Positions 975 to 10,819 of a stretch of 11,466 bases of DNA are shown here, one piece after another. Source of the DNA: a virus; the UHGV virus genome UHGV-0306748. The stretch is one strand, 5' to 3'. Under the pieces are notes generated by a model. It ran no database searches. It saw only the letters and a list, made by a program, of their open reading frames with translations, and was not told the origin of the DNA. Every line of letters begins with the position of its first letter. Within the stretch, counting starts at the first letter, position 1. The translations under genes were made by a program, and so were the position numbers.

Positions 975-1799
975 CTATTTTTTATCCAGCTTCTTGGCGG
1001 CAGATTCTAATTGTTTGATGCTTTTTTCCGGTACGGGCAGATTCTCTGGCATTGTCCCGCCTAGCTCCTGGATTGTTTGCCTAACTTTCCGGCCGACCTC
1101 GAAGTGAGTTTCATTAGCTTTTTGCTTCGATTTAACATTATCTCTGCGGAGCTTTTCTTCTGCCTGAGTCGCTCGGAACAGGTTGGCTGCCAATTCGGTA
1201 GAACCCATGTGATCGAGTATCTTTTGGCTCTTTTTAAGACCTTTTCGCTGATGGATAGCCTTTTGGTCTAACCCGCCATAAAGCCCCTTGTATCCGTGAT
1301 TCTGGAAGATTGCAAAGTCCAATGTTGTTTCAACACCAGCTTGCTGTGCTGCCTCAACAAGTTGCTTGTTGTGTTCCTTTAACTCGTTTCGGAGAAAAAG
1401 GCGCTTTTGATCCTCGCGGAGTCGCTTGAATGTTTCATCGTCAGCTAGTTCCTGCCGTCTGGTCTGTATTGCAAAATATGTTTGCCCAGCAGCAATAACT
1501 GGCTTGCTAGGATCGCCGTTCTGCACAACTAGATAGCAGGCATATCTGGACAAATGAACATCTTCCAACTCTCGTTGGGCACCAGACCCTAGAACAACCA
1601 TTTTGGTGGTATCAACGAAATGGTCTGAAACCTCTTGGTTGCTGGTTTCACACGCCTGAGCTGCTCGTGATAGAACGTTTTGAAAGTTTCGCCAATCTCG
1701 ATAATCCAGTAGTGGTGCCAAATCTCTTGCTGACCAATATTCCTGCCCTTCGCTTCCATATTGTCGTAAGTCTTCAAATGGTTGATGGTGCTCGTTCAT
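975..1799 (-). CDS. DinD-family protein, diverged paralog (copy 2), 274 aa
   Basis: Complete ORF in the track; MNEHHQPFEDLRQYGSEGQEYWSARDLAPLLDYRDWRNFQ... is collinear with copy 1 over its full length. No LexA box in its upstream region (1800-1933). Confidence 0.8.
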   Translation of the reverse strand: MNEHHQPFEDLRQYGSEGQEYWSARDLAPLLDYRDWRNFQNVLSRAAQACETSNQEVSDHFVDTTKMVVLGSGAQRELEDVHLSRYACYLVVQNGDPSKPVIAAGQTYFAIQTRRQELADDETFKRLREDQKRLFLRNELKEHNKQLVEAAQQAGVETTLDFAIFQNHGYKGLYGGLDQKAIHQRKGLKKSQKILDHMGSTELAANLFRATQAEEKLRRDNVKSKQKANETHFEVGRKVRQTIQELGGTMPENLPVPEKSIKQLESAAKKLDKK

Positions 1800-3267: not shown

Positions 3268-3549
3268 CTACCTTTGCCTCTTGCCGCCATTTAACCGGAA
3301 GGCGTTACCGTTCGGTTGCGCTATCCCCATGCGGTGTTGCGTTTCGGTAACAGCTTTATGCAGGTCGCCAAAGCCCTCAACCTTTACAGGCGGGCGCTTC
3401 ACGTTCTCCAGACACGTTTCACGGCGGCGCTTTATCCATTCCCGATCATCGTCCTCGGTGCATAACAGCATGACTTCCATCCATCGCGCTGCGGCGCGTC
3501 GGTACAGCCCTTTTGCTTCCAGATCCTCGGCTTTACTGTCGTTTACCAT
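3268..3549 (-). CDS. PerC-family transcriptional activator-like protein, 93 aa
   Basis: The segment AEDLEAKGLYRRAAARWMEVMLLCTEDDDREWIKRRRETCL matches the PerC-family pattern as I recall it. Strong SD (GGGGGAG, 6-nt spacer) before the ATG at 3549. Confidence 0.65.
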   Translation of the reverse strand: MVNDSKAEDLEAKGLYRRAAARWMEVMLLCTEDDDREWIKRRRETCLENVKRPPVKVEGFGDLHKAVTETQHRMGIAQPNGNAFRLNGGKRQR

Positions 3550-3762: not shown

Positions 3763-4434
3763 TTATTCCACCAGCAAAAATGGCGTTGCCCGGTCTATGA
3801 CGTTGATGCCAATTAACGAGCTAACATTTCGACCATTCACAATGCTATCCCGTTCAAGCAAATGCGCTATTTTTTCTACTTCATACCAGTATTGAGCCAT
3901 GAGGGCTTTGGTCTTTTCAACGAGTTTAGAAAGTATTAACTCCCTGTTAATTCGCTTATCTGTAGCGCAGATTAAATCGAGCATGTCATTTACGTTAGCC
4001 ATGTCATAGCGATGAGGTAGCGAATACTTTTTGTTGAAAATATCGTTGTTTTCGTAAAGGGCTTCGCTTACTGGTCCGGCGAGGGATACAAAAGCAGCCT
4101 TTTTTGCATCGCGCTTTATACCATCCGCATAGTAACGTATGAAAGGGATAACTTTACCATTCTGCCCAACTACACCAGATTTACTATCCCGCAAACGCCC
4201 GAGATCGTGGCTGTGAATTATGCTGTGTTTAACAACGCCCAAACACTTGGCCTCATGTACATGTTCGCCAGCAACGTAACCGTATTCATCCATAACGGCG
4301 ATAACCTGTATATCTAAGCGAATAAGCCATGCAGCTACTGCATGTCCCGCTTCGTGGAATGCTACACATCGTTTACCATCACCTATCCAGTTATAGAACA
4401 TTTCATGCTCATATATCTGGTGAATGGCGCCCAT
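3763..4434 (-). CDS. Standalone FtsH-like (peptidase M41) zinc-metallopeptidase domain protein, 223 aa; no AAA+ or transmembrane region
   Basis: HEAGH zinc-binding motif at nt 4342..4356 (confirmed on the DNA) in the FtsH-like context AFHEAGHAVAAWL. A downstream MANVNDM segment resembles the FtsH GASNDI region that holds the third zinc ligand. C-terminal helices resemble the FtsH M41 C-terminus. Its ATG overlaps the upstream gene's stop (TAATG). Confidence 0.7.
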   Translation of the reverse strand: MGAIHQIYEHEMFYNWIGDGKRCVAFHEAGHAVAAWLIRLDIQVIAVMDEYGYVAGEHVHEAKCLGVVKHSIIHSHDLGRLRDSKSGVVGQNGKVIPFIRYYADGIKRDAKKAAFVSLAGPVSEALYENNDIFNKKYSLPHRYDMANVNDMLDLICATDKRINRELILSKLVEKTKALMAQYWYEVEKIAHLLERDSIVNGRNVSSLIGINVIDRATPFLLVE

Positions 4435-4607
4435 TACGCGCCCTCGCTTGCCAGTGAGGCCAGCGCCTTATCCATTAATCCCCGAGCAATTTCGTGGATC
4501 GTTGGCGCAACTCCTACCTCTGATTTTTTACGCTGCTCCTCCTGAATTTTCTTTATCGCTTCCATTTGCTTCTCACTTATCAATACCGGCTTTACTGAAA
4601 TAGCCAT
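4434..4607 (-). CDS. Small ribbon-helix-helix-like DNA-binding protein, 57 aa from ATG at 4607
   Basis: MAISVKPVLISEKQMEAIKKIQEEQRKKSEVGVAPTIHEIARGLMDKALASLASEGA has a strand-helix-turn-helix layout typical of RHH (CopG/Arc-like) proteins. AAGGGG SD 4-5 nt before the ATG. The track's TTG start at 4634 is probably an over-extension. Translationally coupled to the peptidase gene. Confidence 0.5.
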   Translation of the reverse strand: MAISVKPVLISEKQMEAIKKIQEEQRKKSEVGVAPTIHEIARGLMDKALASLASEGA

Positions 4608-4639
4608 AACGCCCCTTAGAACTGTATAAAACAACAGTT

Positions 4640-4700
4640 ATTATAGTTTCACAAATAGCAATATTTATCACCGTAATTGCAAAATATGAAACAAATAGCA
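4640..4700 (-). promoter_or_regulatory. Candidate promoter/operator region for the RHH-peptidase pair
   Basis: Minus-strand TATAAT at 4645..4640, about 33 nt upstream of the ATG. Two 10-bp direct repeats ACAAATAGCA (4651-4660 and 4691-4700) lie 40 bp apart. No convincing -35 hexamer at 17-bp spacing. Confidence 0.3.
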
Positions 4701-4701
4701 C

Positions 4702-4734
4702 AAAAAAATGCCGCCGCTCAGTAGCTGGTGGCAT
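4702..4734 (-). terminator. Candidate rho-independent terminator for the alpha operon
   Basis: 8-bp stem (4708-4715 / 4727-4734; 7 of 8 pairs) with an 11-nt loop, followed on the minus strand by six T (complement of 4702-4707). It lies between the iteron cluster and the RHH promoter. Confidence 0.4.
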
Positions 4735-4809
4735 CGTTCTGTGTGTCAAGTTTTGACAAGTTTCGTTTTAAGCTCACCCCCCCATAGAATCTTTTTGGGG
4801 GTGTAATAT

Positions 4810-5057
4810 CCCTACCAATCCCTACTAACTGGCTCATGCCACGAATGGCAAGGCTTTCAGACTGGTAGGCATTCAATTTTGTTGCCCTACATAACCCTAC
4901 TTATCCCTACTAAATCACTTCAACGGCATTTTACTGCCTGTTTTATTTGGTAGGGATATGTAGGGATAAGTAGGGATAAAAATATATATCCCTACCTAGT
5001 TTAAAGCCTTGCTACGTCTGGCCTCGTCTCGTTTTTAGTAGGGCAGTAGGGATAAGT
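4810..5057. repeat. Iteron cluster; putative replication origin for the alpha-like primase-helicase
   Basis: About 11 copies of a GTAGGG(ATA) / (TAT)CCCTAC core in both orientations. Three CCCTAC copies begin at 4885, 4895 and 4905 and three TAGGGATA copies at 4951, 4961 and 4971 (10-bp phasing). Others are at 4812, 4822, 4992, 5040 and 5049. An AT-rich stretch AAAAATATATAT sits at 4978-4989. Confidence 0.6.
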
Positions 5058-5072
5058 GCCGCCGTAAAAGTT

Positions 5073-7514
5073 TCAATCATCACTCTGCCCGCTCTCCACA
5101 CCGTAAGCGCGTGGCATGAACTCCTCAGCCTTCTCGTTATAGCCAACGTTGGTTTGCGCTCTGCCGTTAATGCTTCTCGTCAGGTAGCTGGCTCGGTACT
5201 CTTTTGCTGCTGATTTTATGGCGCGTGAAAACTTATTGACGGAAAGCGGTTTACCCAAACCGTGATACTCCATAAACGCCAGATAAAGATGATAAAGATA
5301 CGTCCTCGGCTCTGGCTGGCCTGCCCATGTACCTCCGCCCATCATCATGCCTTTGGGTTCGTTCATGAAAAAAAGCGCCGCACACATATCGACAACCGGA
5401 TCCGTGCCGCGTTTAACCTCTAGCGCCTCCTGCGAATCGCGCTGCTCTAGTAATAGTGCCTTTGCTTTGTTCTGGTCGGCAAAGGTGGTTAGCAGGTGGC
5501 GGATAATCACCGGGATTTCTCGCCTGATTTTTGCGGTTAAATCCGGGTCTTTGTCTGCGTCTGATACCGGGTTATTAAACGGGAATATCACGCGGCGGCG
5601 GGCAATGCCCCCGTTTCGCTCCGTGAATGTCATCGGCTCGTTATTGGTTGCCATAACAACGGCATTTATCACGGTTGTGAACTGCTTTTCATATTTCCCA
5701 TCAATCTCTACCGGATCGCCGCCCGTAATGGCTTTAATCCCCGCACCCTCTCCAACATAGCGGGTCTGGTCAGGCATAATAATCAGGCTTTTTCCTACGA
5801 ACTGCGCCCGTCCCCGTGCGGTGTCCAGCGTCATCATGCTACCGCTGGCGGTGTTGTGTTCACCTGCCAGCGTGGTTGCTATGCTGCTGAATACGGATTT
5901 CCCACTGCCGCCCTCGCCAGTTATCTCAATGAATAGCTGCCAGTCGTGACGCTTCGCCAGCACCATAAACAAGGCTGCTTTGATACGCTCGGCCTTATGA
6001 TGGTCGCCAGCCGTTGCATGATTCAGCCAACGGGTAAAATTGGGGGCGCTGGTGGTAATATTTTCCCCCGGCGCTGGCGGGGTGTAGGTGATCCCATTGT
6101 GGTTCATCAGCCAGTTACCCGGCGAATGGGCGGAAAACGTCTGCGTAGCGAGGTCATAAACGCCGTTATCAAAACCAATCAAATCCCCGCTCCGCTCACC
6201 AATTACCGGTATTTGCAGCTTCATGGTTGCGACAACCGATTTAATCCCCTTTTCGGTGTAGTGGGCTTCGTGCTCGTCGAAAATTGCCACCATAACCCTT
6301 TCTAATTCGCTGTCTGGTAGCTTCACCCATACGCCAGATTCGTAGCAGTAAACAGTGCCACTATCAGGGTTAACCGCCAACATATCCCATCGAGATGAAA
6401 GCAACCGCGCTTTCTGGCTGGCTGCCATTTGTGCAATATCTCCGACATCGGCTTTACGGCGGGATTTACCGCCCTCAATGGCTTGCAATCGCGGTTTCAC
6501 GGCTTCCCCTTGAATCTGGTACATCGAATCGTTAAACGCAGCCGTAGCGACTTCCAGCCCGTTTTGCTGGCGGTAGTCGTCCCAGTCGGCTTTGTAGTCT
6601 GTCGGCGGCAGCGCCACCCAGCCAGCCACGGATAAGGCGGCTTTCTCTGCGGCATCTTTGCCCGTGTTCGCCTGGTCGTCCTGCTGGTGGTCGTTATCTG
6701 CGGCAATGATAATCTGCGTGGCTGGATATATCCGGCGCATCACTTCGGCAACGGGTAGCAGGTTGCCCGCGTCAATTGCTGCCACTGCCAGCGCGTCCGG
6801 GCGCATCAGGTGAACTGAAAGGGCCGTCGCCAGCCCCTCGGCAATTAAAACGCTCTGCGGCGATTCTGGCGCGTTTACGGCGTGATATGCCCCGCGCTTT
6901 GCTGAACCTGTCAGGAGTCGTTTATCTCCCTGCGGCGTGATGGTCTGCGCCGCCACTACTGCGCCGGATTCATCCACCAGCTCCAGCAATAACGAACCAT
7001 CCGGCATAACCGGATAGTTAAACCCGGTCAGCCCTTTTGATTGCAGGTAATCAGATTCGCCCTGTGTGGCACTCTGGCGCATTCCGGCATACAGATGGGC
7101 AAACGTAGCCCTTCGCTGCTCTGCGTCCTCTGCTGCCTGTTTCTGGCGCTCCTGCTCACGCTGCTGGCGGTCAGCTTCCAGTTGCTCTCTTCTATGGCTC
7201 GCTGCCGCCGGGTCGGTTTGCGCTGCCCGGTAATCAATACCCAGCACGTCAGCGGCAAGCTGTGCCGCCTCCGTGGTGTCGCAGTTGTTAACCCGCTTGA
7301 TTAAATCCAGCCCGTCACCAGCGCCACACTGGTTGCAGATAAAGCTACCGCGCCCGTTGTCGTCGAATCTGAAACGGTCTTTTCCACCACATGCAGGGCA
7401 TGGAGAATGGCGGCGCGATGAATCAGGCACGTCGATAGACAATCCAGCCAGCACATAAGGCCAGCGCCCTGCTGCGGCGCTGGTCACTTCGCGGATAAGG
7501 TCGATATTACGCAT
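5073..7514 (-). CDS. P4 alpha-like primase-helicase, about 813 aa from ATG at 7514
   Basis: N-terminal zinc-binding motif CPACGGKDRFRFDD...CNQCGAGDG, a Toprim-like acidic segment IIIAADNDHQQDD, and a C-terminal Walker A GEGGSGKS (nt about 5895-5918). AGGAGG SD 5 nt before the ATG at 7514, which overlaps the upstream stop. The track's 7547 start is likely over-extended. Confidence 0.85.
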   Translation of the reverse strand: MRNIDLIREVTSAAAGRWPYVLAGLSIDVPDSSRRHSPCPACGGKDRFRFDDNGRGSFICNQCGAGDGLDLIKRVNNCDTTEAAQLAADVLGIDYRAAQTDPAAASHRREQLEADRQQREQERQKQAAEDAEQRRATFAHLYAGMRQSATQGESDYLQSKGLTGFNYPVMPDGSLLLELVDESGAVVAAQTITPQGDKRLLTGSAKRGAYHAVNAPESPQSVLIAEGLATALSVHLMRPDALAVAAIDAGNLLPVAEVMRRIYPATQIIIAADNDHQQDDQANTGKDAAEKAALSVAGWVALPPTDYKADWDDYRQQNGLEVATAAFNDSMYQIQGEAVKPRLQAIEGGKSRRKADVGDIAQMAASQKARLLSSRWDMLAVNPDSGTVYCYESGVWVKLPDSELERVMVAIFDEHEAHYTEKGIKSVVATMKLQIPVIGERSGDLIGFDNGVYDLATQTFSAHSPGNWLMNHNGITYTPPAPGENITTSAPNFTRWLNHATAGDHHKAERIKAALFMVLAKRHDWQLFIEITGEGGSGKSVFSSIATTLAGEHNTASGSMMTLDTARGRAQFVGKSLIIMPDQTRYVGEGAGIKAITGGDPVEIDGKYEKQFTTVINAVVMATNNEPMTFTERNGGIARRRVIFPFNNPVSDADKDPDLTAKIRREIPVIIRHLLTTFADQNKAKALLLEQRDSQEALEVKRGTDPVVDMCAALFFMNEPKGMMMGGGTWAGQPEPRTYLYHLYLAFMEYHGLGKPLSVNKFSRAIKSAAKEYRASYLTRSINGRAQTNVGYNEKAEEFMPRAYGVESGQSDD

Positions 7515-7848
7515 GGTTGCCTCCTGCCACGGTCGCGCCCATATCATTAATCATGCTTTGCCATATCTCGCGCCCGACGTCAGTCAATCCGTCCTTAGTG
7601 ACGCAACGATCAAGAAGCTCGATCCCCACGGTTTCCCACTGCGGGTAGAACACTTTCATGGCTGCCAGTGTGTAGCTATCGATCAGGCTGCGAACGCCTT
7701 TTACTCCATTGACGATTTCCACACGGACGGCGAGGCCGTCCGCATCAACCATGAAATAGTCCCCGCCGCTGGTGGAGGTAATGTGGTTATACAGTGCCGA
7801 CGCATACTTATTCGCCAGCGCATTCAGTCGGAAATTTTTAGTAATCAT
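7507..7848 (-). CDS. Hypothetical protein, 113 aa, alpha-operon member
   Basis: ATG at 7848 preceded by a GAGGGGG SD; tightly packed with flanking genes. No family recognised. Confidence 0.55.
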   Translation of the reverse strand: MITKNFRLNALANKYASALYNHITSTSGGDYFMVDADGLAVRVEIVNGVKGVRSLIDSYTLAAMKVFYPQWETVGIELLDRCVTKDGLTDVGREIWQSMINDMGATVAGGNHA

Positions 7849-9993: not shown

Positions 9994-10819
9994 GGTTTAC
10001 CTCCAGACGTTTAGTGAGCCAGCGTTGCGACAGGCGGGTGAGTTCTCCTTTGCGCTGCTCATATTCCATGCCCATATCAATTAGCGTGATATTGGTGCTT
10101 TCCAGATAGGAGAGGTGTTCAAGCTGTGCTGCGTTCATATGGTCGCGAGGTTCGCCAGTAATGCCATTTGCCTGCGCCCACTGCTTCGCCGTCATGCCAC
10201 CCAGCACGATACGGGCGATCATGTTGCTCTCGTTGCTGTAGTGGCGCTGCTGCGTCGTTTTACCCAGCTCGGCACGGGCCATATTCAGCGCATCGCACAT
10301 TGGCTTAAAGTTGTTTGCGGCACTGATACGGGCTTTTAGCTGGCGACGATAGCGGGCGGCGATTTCAGGCACGCTACGCTGTAATTCTTCCTCGCACTGG
10401 ATGAAATAACGGCGGATAGCGCGGCCCTGTTCGGTGCGTTCGACCATCGCCAGTTCTTTCGCCATTCCGACACTTAACAGATAGTCTTTGCCGGGTCTGC
10501 CAGACTGCTTAATCTTGCTGTAAGCCGCGCCATTCGGGCTTTTCCCCAGATTTGGGGAAATAGTTTTATGGACTGAGTAATCGTGCCCAATGGTGAAGTC
10601 ATATTCAGAGATGCGATCAGTGATCCATGTAGAGAAGTCTTTTCCCACGCCCAACGCTTTGTGTAACGCTTTTGCGCTAACAATATTGGTTTCACGCCCA
10701 CCGATATGACCAGGAATAACCGGGACAATTGCGGCAAATTCATTACCGTTAATTGTGCCCTGATAGGCGTTCAGATGAGGGGCGGCCTCAGAAATTAATC
10801 TGCTTTTTTCGATGTTCAT
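9986..10819 (-). CDS. Phage antirepressor-like protein (AntA/KilAC-type), 277 aa
   Basis: The N-terminal region (AIVPVIPGHIGGRETNIVSAKALHKALGVGKDFSTWITDRI) and a central region (GMAKELAMVERTEQGRAIRRYFIQCEEEL) resemble Ant/KilAC antirepressor domains. GGAG SD 7 nt before the ATG at 10819. Confidence 0.55.
   Translation of the reverse strand: MNIEKSRLISEAAPHLNAYQGTINGNEFAAIVPVIPGHIGGRETNIVSAKALHKALGVGKDFSTWITDRISEYDFTIGHDYSVHKTISPNLGKSPNGAAYSKIKQSGRPGKDYLLSVGMAKELAMVERTEQGRAIRRYFIQCEEELQRSVPEIAARYRRQLKARISAANNFKPMCDALNMARAELGKTTQQRHYSNESNMIARIVLGGMTAKQWAQANGITGEPRDHMNAAQLEHLSYLESTNITLIDMGMEYEQRKGELTRLSQRWLTKRLEVNHA

Follow-up and report, generated by a model that had tools for sequence, protein, structure and literature searches.

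Positions 4810-5051 of the virus genome UHGV-0306748, of which a stretch of 11,466 nucleotides (the window) was analyzed, very probably represent the replication origin of a Gram-negative phage-inducible chromosomal island (PICI) of E. coli, approximately 12 kb in size and located next to dinD. The assignment was made by sequence comparison, and the features by which such an origin can be recognized are found together: the stretch lies immediately 3' of the pri-rep gene, iteron sets of opposite orientation surround an AT-rich region, and the sites are arranged as in the PICI EcCICFT073. As this layout is shared with EcCICFT073 and no second cluster is present, the single origin of the PICIs is a closer model than the pair of ori and crr known from P4.

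The window contains 12 exact copies of the core GTAGGG (CCCTAC in the opposite orientation), of which 11 lie inside 4810-5051. In dinucleotide-preserving shuffles of the whole window GTAGGG was counted 3.4 times on average and 8 times at most, and at least 12 copies were reached in 0 out of 200 shuffles. Within the cluster CCCTAC starts at 4810, 4820, 4885, 4895, 4905 and 4990, and GTAGGG starts at 4950, 4960, 4970, 5038 and 5046. A degenerate twelfth site can be read from the sequence at 4865 (Table 1), where three related loci, L002, L031 and L014, possess a perfect GTAGGG; the site at 4950 is exact in the window and degenerate in L002. The preliminary description of this stretch had counted about 11 copies in both orientations, which is in agreement with 11 exact words plus the degenerate one.

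Both inner triplets are spaced by exactly 10 bp, and Tandem Repeats Finder (TRF) recognizes arrays of period 10 at 4885-4911 and 4950-4979. The extended unit is approximately GTAGGGATA(A/T); the word itself, GTAGGG(ATA), has about 9 bp. The six site pairs share a common midpoint at 4930-4931.5, with the dyad centre at approximately 4930, and the whole cluster of 242 bp is therefore a single mirror-symmetric array, << > <<< / >>> < >> (arrowheads give the orientation, the slash gives the centre). Counted in nucleotides after the stop codon of pri-rep the sites are placed at 22< 30< 78> 98< 108< 118< / 163> 173> 183> (203<) 248> 258>. The nearest iteron is thus found 22 nt past the stop, as expected from the earlier claim that the cluster directly follows the 3' end of the alpha-like gene.

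Two parts of the array could serve as the site of melting. The central spacer keeps its position among the relatives while its sequence is not conserved, and it is the AT-rich stretch that is flanked by the exact 10-bp runs, as had been proposed. The pure A+T tract at 4976-4989 is located off-centre in the array and retains its (TA)n character in the relatives; among all 20-bp duplexes of the window the one at 4971-4990 is the weakest (dG -18.9 compared to a mean of -27.2, sd 2.7).

Table 1. Features of the putative origin and of the adjacent initiator gene (positions in the window)
Feature	Position	Strand	Remarks
Outer distal iteron pair, CCCTAC at 4810 and 4820, 10 bp apart	4810..4825	-	Conserved in L002, L012, L013 and L031; mirror partner of the pair 5038/5046 (midpoints 4930.5 and 4931.5)
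Degenerate single iteron GTAGGC	4865..4870	+	Mirror partner of the iteron at 4990
Left inner iteron triplet, 10-bp period	4885..4910	-	TRF; conserved in four lineages
Central 39-bp spacer, 67% AT	4911..4949	.	Holds the dyad centre; candidate melting/loading site
Right inner iteron triplet, 10-bp period	4950..4975	+	2-4 copies among E. coli strains
Pure A+T 14-mer ATAAAAATATATAT	4976..4989	.	Between oppositely oriented iterons; second candidate unwinding element
Single inverted iteron CCCTAC	4990..4995	-	
Outer gene-proximal iteron pair, GTAGGG at 5038 and 5046, 8 bp apart	5038..5051	+	
Pri-Rep (P4-alpha-like) gene	5073..7514	-	813 aa according to the annotation in relatives
Putative origin-binding domain, proposed iteron reader	5094..5372	-	Residues 715-807 of the 824-aa ORF, ~704-796 of the 813-aa protein

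Several other elements of the region were considered. A possible DnaA box was rejected by eye, since TTATCCCTA deviates from TTATCCACA at two positions of the critical 3' portion. A small ORF at 4718..4876(-) overlaps the words and is regarded as spurious, since conservation of the words is seen at the DNA level in either orientation. Directly beyond the distalmost iteron a G/C hairpin is located at 4775-4803 (CACCCCCCC-ATAGAATCTTTTT-GGGGGTG), which is kept in relatives with a C-run of 6 to 10 residues depending on the strain; it is followed by no T-run and was not called a terminator. Comparison with Rfam led to chance-level eukaryotic matches only. The origin region was not found in phage records, and on large plasmids five weak matches were obtained.

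Cluster and gene are tightly linked: among complete E. coli genomes 78 carry the cluster and 75 carry the full-length allele of the gene. In L002, which is 79% identical over the region, every word is in place and the spacers have diverged. To quantify this we aligned the window with the loci of Shimwellia (L031), L018 and Buttiauxella (L014). The pairwise identity between these four lineages is 80% in the iteron cores compared to 56% outside the cores, and 45 out of 72 core columns are fully conserved compared to 57 out of 180 spacer columns (Fisher p = 9e-6). The right triplet varies in steps of exactly 10 bp, with two copies in strain F11 (L003), three in the window and four in strain MSB1_1D (L004); the respective arrays are located at 751-766 of L003 and 751-786 of L004. 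In strain DY612 the origin (L005, 3191-3268) is a recombinant, with the distal two thirds of the window type and the third near the gene of the L002 type; one of its words is degraded to GTTGGG, and the partner primase allele carries a different name. The locus L018 comes from a record titled Chryseobacterium sp. 18061, a Bacteroidota-labelled assembly, and shares 82% identity with the enterobacterial gene, with frameshifts and only seven exact words; contamination or a recent transfer is likely here.

The unit missing in strain F11, together with the frameshift in the primase gene of this strain, could be taken as a hint that the cluster is a non-functional relic; one might also think of a chance repeat of low complexity, or of a site for integration or packaging. 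We consider this group of explanations extremely unlikely. The enrichment of the word is extreme, the words have been kept in spite of diverging spacers, the architecture is common to genera from Escherichia through Aeromonas, and the integrase gene and the att site are located at the end of the island opposite to the cluster.

The ORF for Pri-Rep, 5073..7547(-), encodes 824 aa, and the annotation of the relatives places the start at 7514. Pfam matches were obtained for Zn_Ribbon_Prim, Toprim_3, D5_N, DUF5906 and Pox_D5, leading to the domain order Zn-ribbon, Toprim primase, D5_N, DUF5906 helicase and C-terminal origin-binding domain. Among phage records the protein is matched best by P4 alpha, with 38% identity across 97% of the length. 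Compared to solved structures, residues 399-660 match the PriRep helicase of SaPI5 (7OLA, E 3.8e-11), and the C-terminus matches the origin-binding domain of P4 alpha (1KA8, E 4.2e-8 with phmmer, chain residues 2-93 of 100). An AlphaFold2 model of the full Pri-Rep, calculated from an alignment of 17 sequences, has a pLDDT below 50 at residues 533-813. Besides, the primase part (6465-7514, the N-terminal ~42%) is 73-89% identical on the nucleotide level to genes that carry the annotation "TOPRIM and DUF927" or "DUF5906" in numerous E. coli genomes, while the helicase and the C-terminal part are without such matches. For the gene as a whole approximately 1,950 out of 2,078 matching records fall within the 60-80% band of overall identity. 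The initiator gene is a mosaic at the domain level.

The type example of the single origin in Gram-negative PICIs is EcCICFT073, described by Fillol-Salom et al. 2018 (ISME J, PMC6092414). Its pri-rep-ori segment kept a temperature-sensitive plasmid at the restrictive temperature; in this test a rep mutant gave no colonies and deletion of ori led to strongly fewer (PMC6092414). The element resembles the island in the window in having one cluster, placed immediately after pri-rep with its 12 sites laid out alike (17< 26< 72> 94< 105< 114< / 145> 156> 178< 224> 233> in nucleotides after the stop), and in the order of the island, which is int, AlpA-type HTH, Icd-like, DUF4222, pri-rep, ori and accessory genes including perC. 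The two differ in the word, which is GGTAGA(C/T)A in EcCICFT073 and GTAGGGATA in the window, and in the initiator: the Pri-Rep of EcCICFT073 has 584 aa compared to 813 aa here, where an N-terminal Zn-ribbon and a Toprim primase are present as in P4 alpha. The origin-binding domains are only 45% identical, and the AT-rich stretch of EcCICFT073 is placed elsewhere than 4976-4989.

The preliminary description had taken P4 as its model, in which alpha binds iterons at ori and at a crr located 3' of alpha. What stood from this model is the protein, an alpha homolog with the same domain order and a C-terminal domain homologous to 1KA8, whereas the arrangement of the DNA follows the PICIs. According to the annotated record of P4 the crr is located directly 3' of alpha with short words in both orientations, and the word is TGTTCACC, as the description had stated. 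The equivalent position and the full-length alpha homolog could be interpreted such that the present cluster is a crr-like cis-acting enhancer bound by alpha, and that replication starts at a separate origin elsewhere. This is very improbable, however, as ori and crr of P4 are approximately 4.7 kb apart and share their word, whereas the island has one cluster only, and neither the window nor the complete islands L001 and L002 contain a second one. Furthermore, the crr consists of two direct repeats of 120 bp, in contrast to the mirror-symmetric array observed here, which is laid out like the single origin of EcCICFT073. Of the features of P4 we thus find the alpha-type primase-helicase with its C-terminal origin-binding domain, but not the word TGTTCACC, the two loci or the gene set. 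The comparison shows that an initiator of the P4 alpha type can apparently serve a single origin of the PICI type.

A more distant parallel is given by the SaPIs. Their origins are described as 6-12 penta- or hexanucleotide iterons directly after rep with an AT-rich centre (Ubeda et al. 2007, in the part cited in PMC9371898), and binding to the iterons, which requires no ATP, occurs through the winged helix at the C-terminus of a self-loading Rep helicase (structures 7OLA and 7PDS, PMC9371898). The likeness lies in the iterons immediately after rep and in their opposite orientation on either side of an AT-rich region; the Gram-positive host, the distantly related proteins and the words are different. 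Iterons of plasmids such as pPS10, R6K, RK2 and F have a length of 17-22 bp, are mostly direct, and are used by a WH1-WH2 Rep that needs DnaA and DnaB/DnaC. With these plasmids the cluster shares the repeated initiator words beside an AT-rich unwinding element; its own words, in contrast, have 6-9 bp and are mirror-arranged, and the initiator is a primase-helicase.

In plasmids iterons often double as autoregulatory sites. As the cluster is intergenic and precedes the genes that follow on the same strand, the words could be transcriptional operators of the downstream operon, which comprises the small ORF, the M41-like gene and perC, or of pri-rep itself, bound by Pri-Rep or by another protein of the island. 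That this is their main role appears highly unlikely to us: a consensus scan of 4400-5200 found no promoter of the sigma-70 type and no terminator, and twelve sites in a mirror array of 240 bp with an AT-rich core resemble an origin. In addition, the word co-varies with the C-terminal domain of the initiator, and the genes downstream of the same cluster differ (M41-like here, ssb in L011). A secondary regulatory role of the words is possible.

For the proposed origin the following mechanism may be considered. Pri-Rep would combine primase, helicase and initiator in one chain, and its C-terminal winged-helix domain would read the ~9-bp word GTAGGGATA. The mirror array, whose inner triplets lie on the same side of the helix, could allow two oppositely oriented rings of Pri-Rep to assemble. 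These rings might then open A+T-rich DNA, either in the 39-bp centre or in the pure A+T 14-mer, so that Pri-Rep would load itself and prime bidirectional synthesis. Binding, the loading of a double ring and the activity as an origin are what we infer from the similarities given above, as is the site of melting, which is uncertain because the AT-rich element is not placed alike in the different word classes.

To compare the words across homologs we scanned one genome per species. Among the 20 homologs obtained (47-93% identity) 18 were scorable and two ran off their contigs. In 17 out of the 18 scorable homologs, and likewise in the five reference elements P4, EcCICFT073, ATCC 25922, EcCIRM13514 and EcCI042, one word is repeated 7-12 times within the first 500 nt behind the stop. 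GTAGGG is found in Kluyvera, Atlantibacter, Shimwellia, Buttiauxella, L018 and one Aeromonas locus (L024). GGTAGA(G/Y)A is the word of Rosenbergiella, Tolumonas, a second Aeromonas locus (L030) and EcCICFT073, and TGTTCAC(C) that of Rahnella, Tatumella, Erwinia, Serratia aquatilis, EcCIRM13514 and P4. Yersinia has T(G/A)TTCAG, and EcCI042 (O42), with an unrelated protein of the RepA type, has AAGTGAGG. In the Serratia fonticola locus L017 no iteron cluster was found after the gene (6415-6900) or anywhere in the 10-kb locus; its protein is 53% identical overall with a C-terminal domain of the GTAG type, and coding-like sequence directly follows the gene. Three out of the four Pri-Rep alleles named in PMC6092414 (all except EcCIED1a) were compared, and all of them have words other than GTAGGG, namely GGTAGAYA (CFT073), TGTTCACC (RM13514) and AAGTGAGG (O42). 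The islands of IHE3034, 11128 and Ecol_224 possess shorter, different Pri-Rep genes, and CAR08829 has no link in the cluster-member list.

The class of the word tracks the C-terminal 100-120 residues and not the helicase or the rest of the protein, a co-variation that could partly represent co-inheritance since domain and words are only ~100-300 bp apart. In Tatumella (L026) the helicase is 82% identical to that of the window, the origin-binding domain is 33% identical, and the word is TGTTCACC; in Aeromonas L024 the respective values are 58% and 61%, and GTAGGG is retained. Rosenbergiella (L015, 81% and 80%) has GTAGAGA, which is one base off within a shared core GTAG(G/A)GA. Taken together, this pattern indicates that both the exchange of modules and local drift occur. 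The only residues that set the enteric GTAGGG proteins apart from those with GGTAGA are M717, P734 and N783 (numbering of the 813-aa protein), and N783, located in the segment TRSINGRAQTN, may be a candidate specificity residue.

These results bear on the earlier reading of the cluster as an alpha-dependent origin of a distinct specificity class, which had been said to fall if homologous elements lacked the repeat. They do not lack it: relatives with a similar C-terminal domain share the word and its placement, and where this domain is P4-like, TGTTCAC(C) is found in its place. The word is clearly unlike that of P4, and coexistence with P4 replicons is plausible; its independence from the GGTAGAGA class, however, is uncertain because the difference is a single position within the 7-base core GTAG(G/A)GA. 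One order, orientation and approximate distance of the 12 sites is shared by the window, EcCICFT073, L015, L026 and EcCIRM13514, and the words differ between them. The P4 word TGTTCACC in the 12-site layout of the PICIs was observed in EcCIRM13514 (L009, 8055-8545) and in the loci L026, L016, L028 and L029. EcCIRM13514 and these islands of Tatumella, Rahnella, Erwinia and Serratia have an origin-binding domain of the P4 type and not of the GTAG type. The combination of P4 word and P4-type domain suggests that islands of the EcCIRM13514 type may cross-talk with P4 alpha.

The window matches E. coli chromosomes. Its ORF of 274 aa with a Bro-N domain, 975..1799(-), is the chromosomal dinD, and the window therefore crosses the right-hand junction of an island copy that sits at yicC-dinD, which is also the att site of the published EcCIRM13514. 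Near-identical elements are found at thrW/proA (L001), at yicC-dinD (L011) and beside yfgJ/xseA (L002). The annotated order is integrase, hypothetical gene, AlpA-type HTH, AntA, DUF4222, Icd/Ash-like, small ORFs, primase and the cluster, followed by a small ORF, an ssb or M41-like gene, perC and pRiA4b-ORF3. An integrase, an AlpA-type regulator, pri-rep, a size of ~8-15 kb and an own att site are thus present (L001, L002, L011), as in other PICIs. In the annotated island copies there is no full set of phage morphogenesis genes, and no genes for a capsid or a small terminase subunit are found, which is a further difference from EcCICFT073. Neither sid, delta, psu, epsilon nor cI is annotated in L001, L002 and L011, and none is among the Pfam and PHROGs matches of the window ORFs. 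Judged by its gene content, the element is a Gram-negative PICI of roughly 12 kb and not a satellite of the P4 type. Two further observations concern its genes: a gene for a transcriptional activator of the PerC family is located at 3268-3549 (-) and belongs to the typical accessory genes of E. coli PICIs (perC has been linked to LEE activation, PMC6092414), and a 13-bp tandem repeat, TAGCGGGCGACGA, with 2.1 copies lies at 10337-10363 inside the AntA-family gene.

With regard to novelty, we report an apparently new word in an already known origin architecture that was described in 2018, and the gain is incremental. The combination of GTAGGG(ATA) with a full-length alpha-type Pri-Rep is not contained in the text or the supplements of PMC6092414, Fig. 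2a aside, and a text search of the literature for the word returned only irrelevant matches to the I-SceI site (TAGGGATAA...).

The assignment would give a function to an unannotated stretch of 250 bp in approximately 78 complete E. coli genomes, and to the related islands of Kluyvera, Atlantibacter, Shimwellia, Buttiauxella and others. The comparison of words and domains further leads to testable predictions as to the origins that a given satellite initiator should recognize; for example, islands of the EcCIRM13514 type use the word of P4 and the island in the window does not. This bears on replicon incompatibility, on the cross-activation of satellites in one cell and on the design of orthogonal self-priming replicons. 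The interest lies in a swappable module for origin specificity, i.e. one scaffold with exchangeable words. Tentatively, and with the balance leaning somewhat against so general a statement, we propose that the Pri-Reps of the P4-alpha/PICI type in Enterobacterales and Aeromonadales share a fixed mirror scaffold of 12 sites, in which only the word (GTAGGG, GTAGAG, GGTAGAYA, TGTTCACC or TRTTCAG) and the matching C-terminal reader would be exchanged, by a swap of modules or by a few substitutions (with M717, P734 and N783 as candidates). If this is true, these elements would represent a naturally occurring set of self-loading replicons that are orthogonal to one another, and a readable code of protein-DNA specificity would govern whether satellites coexist or cross-activate each other in one cell.
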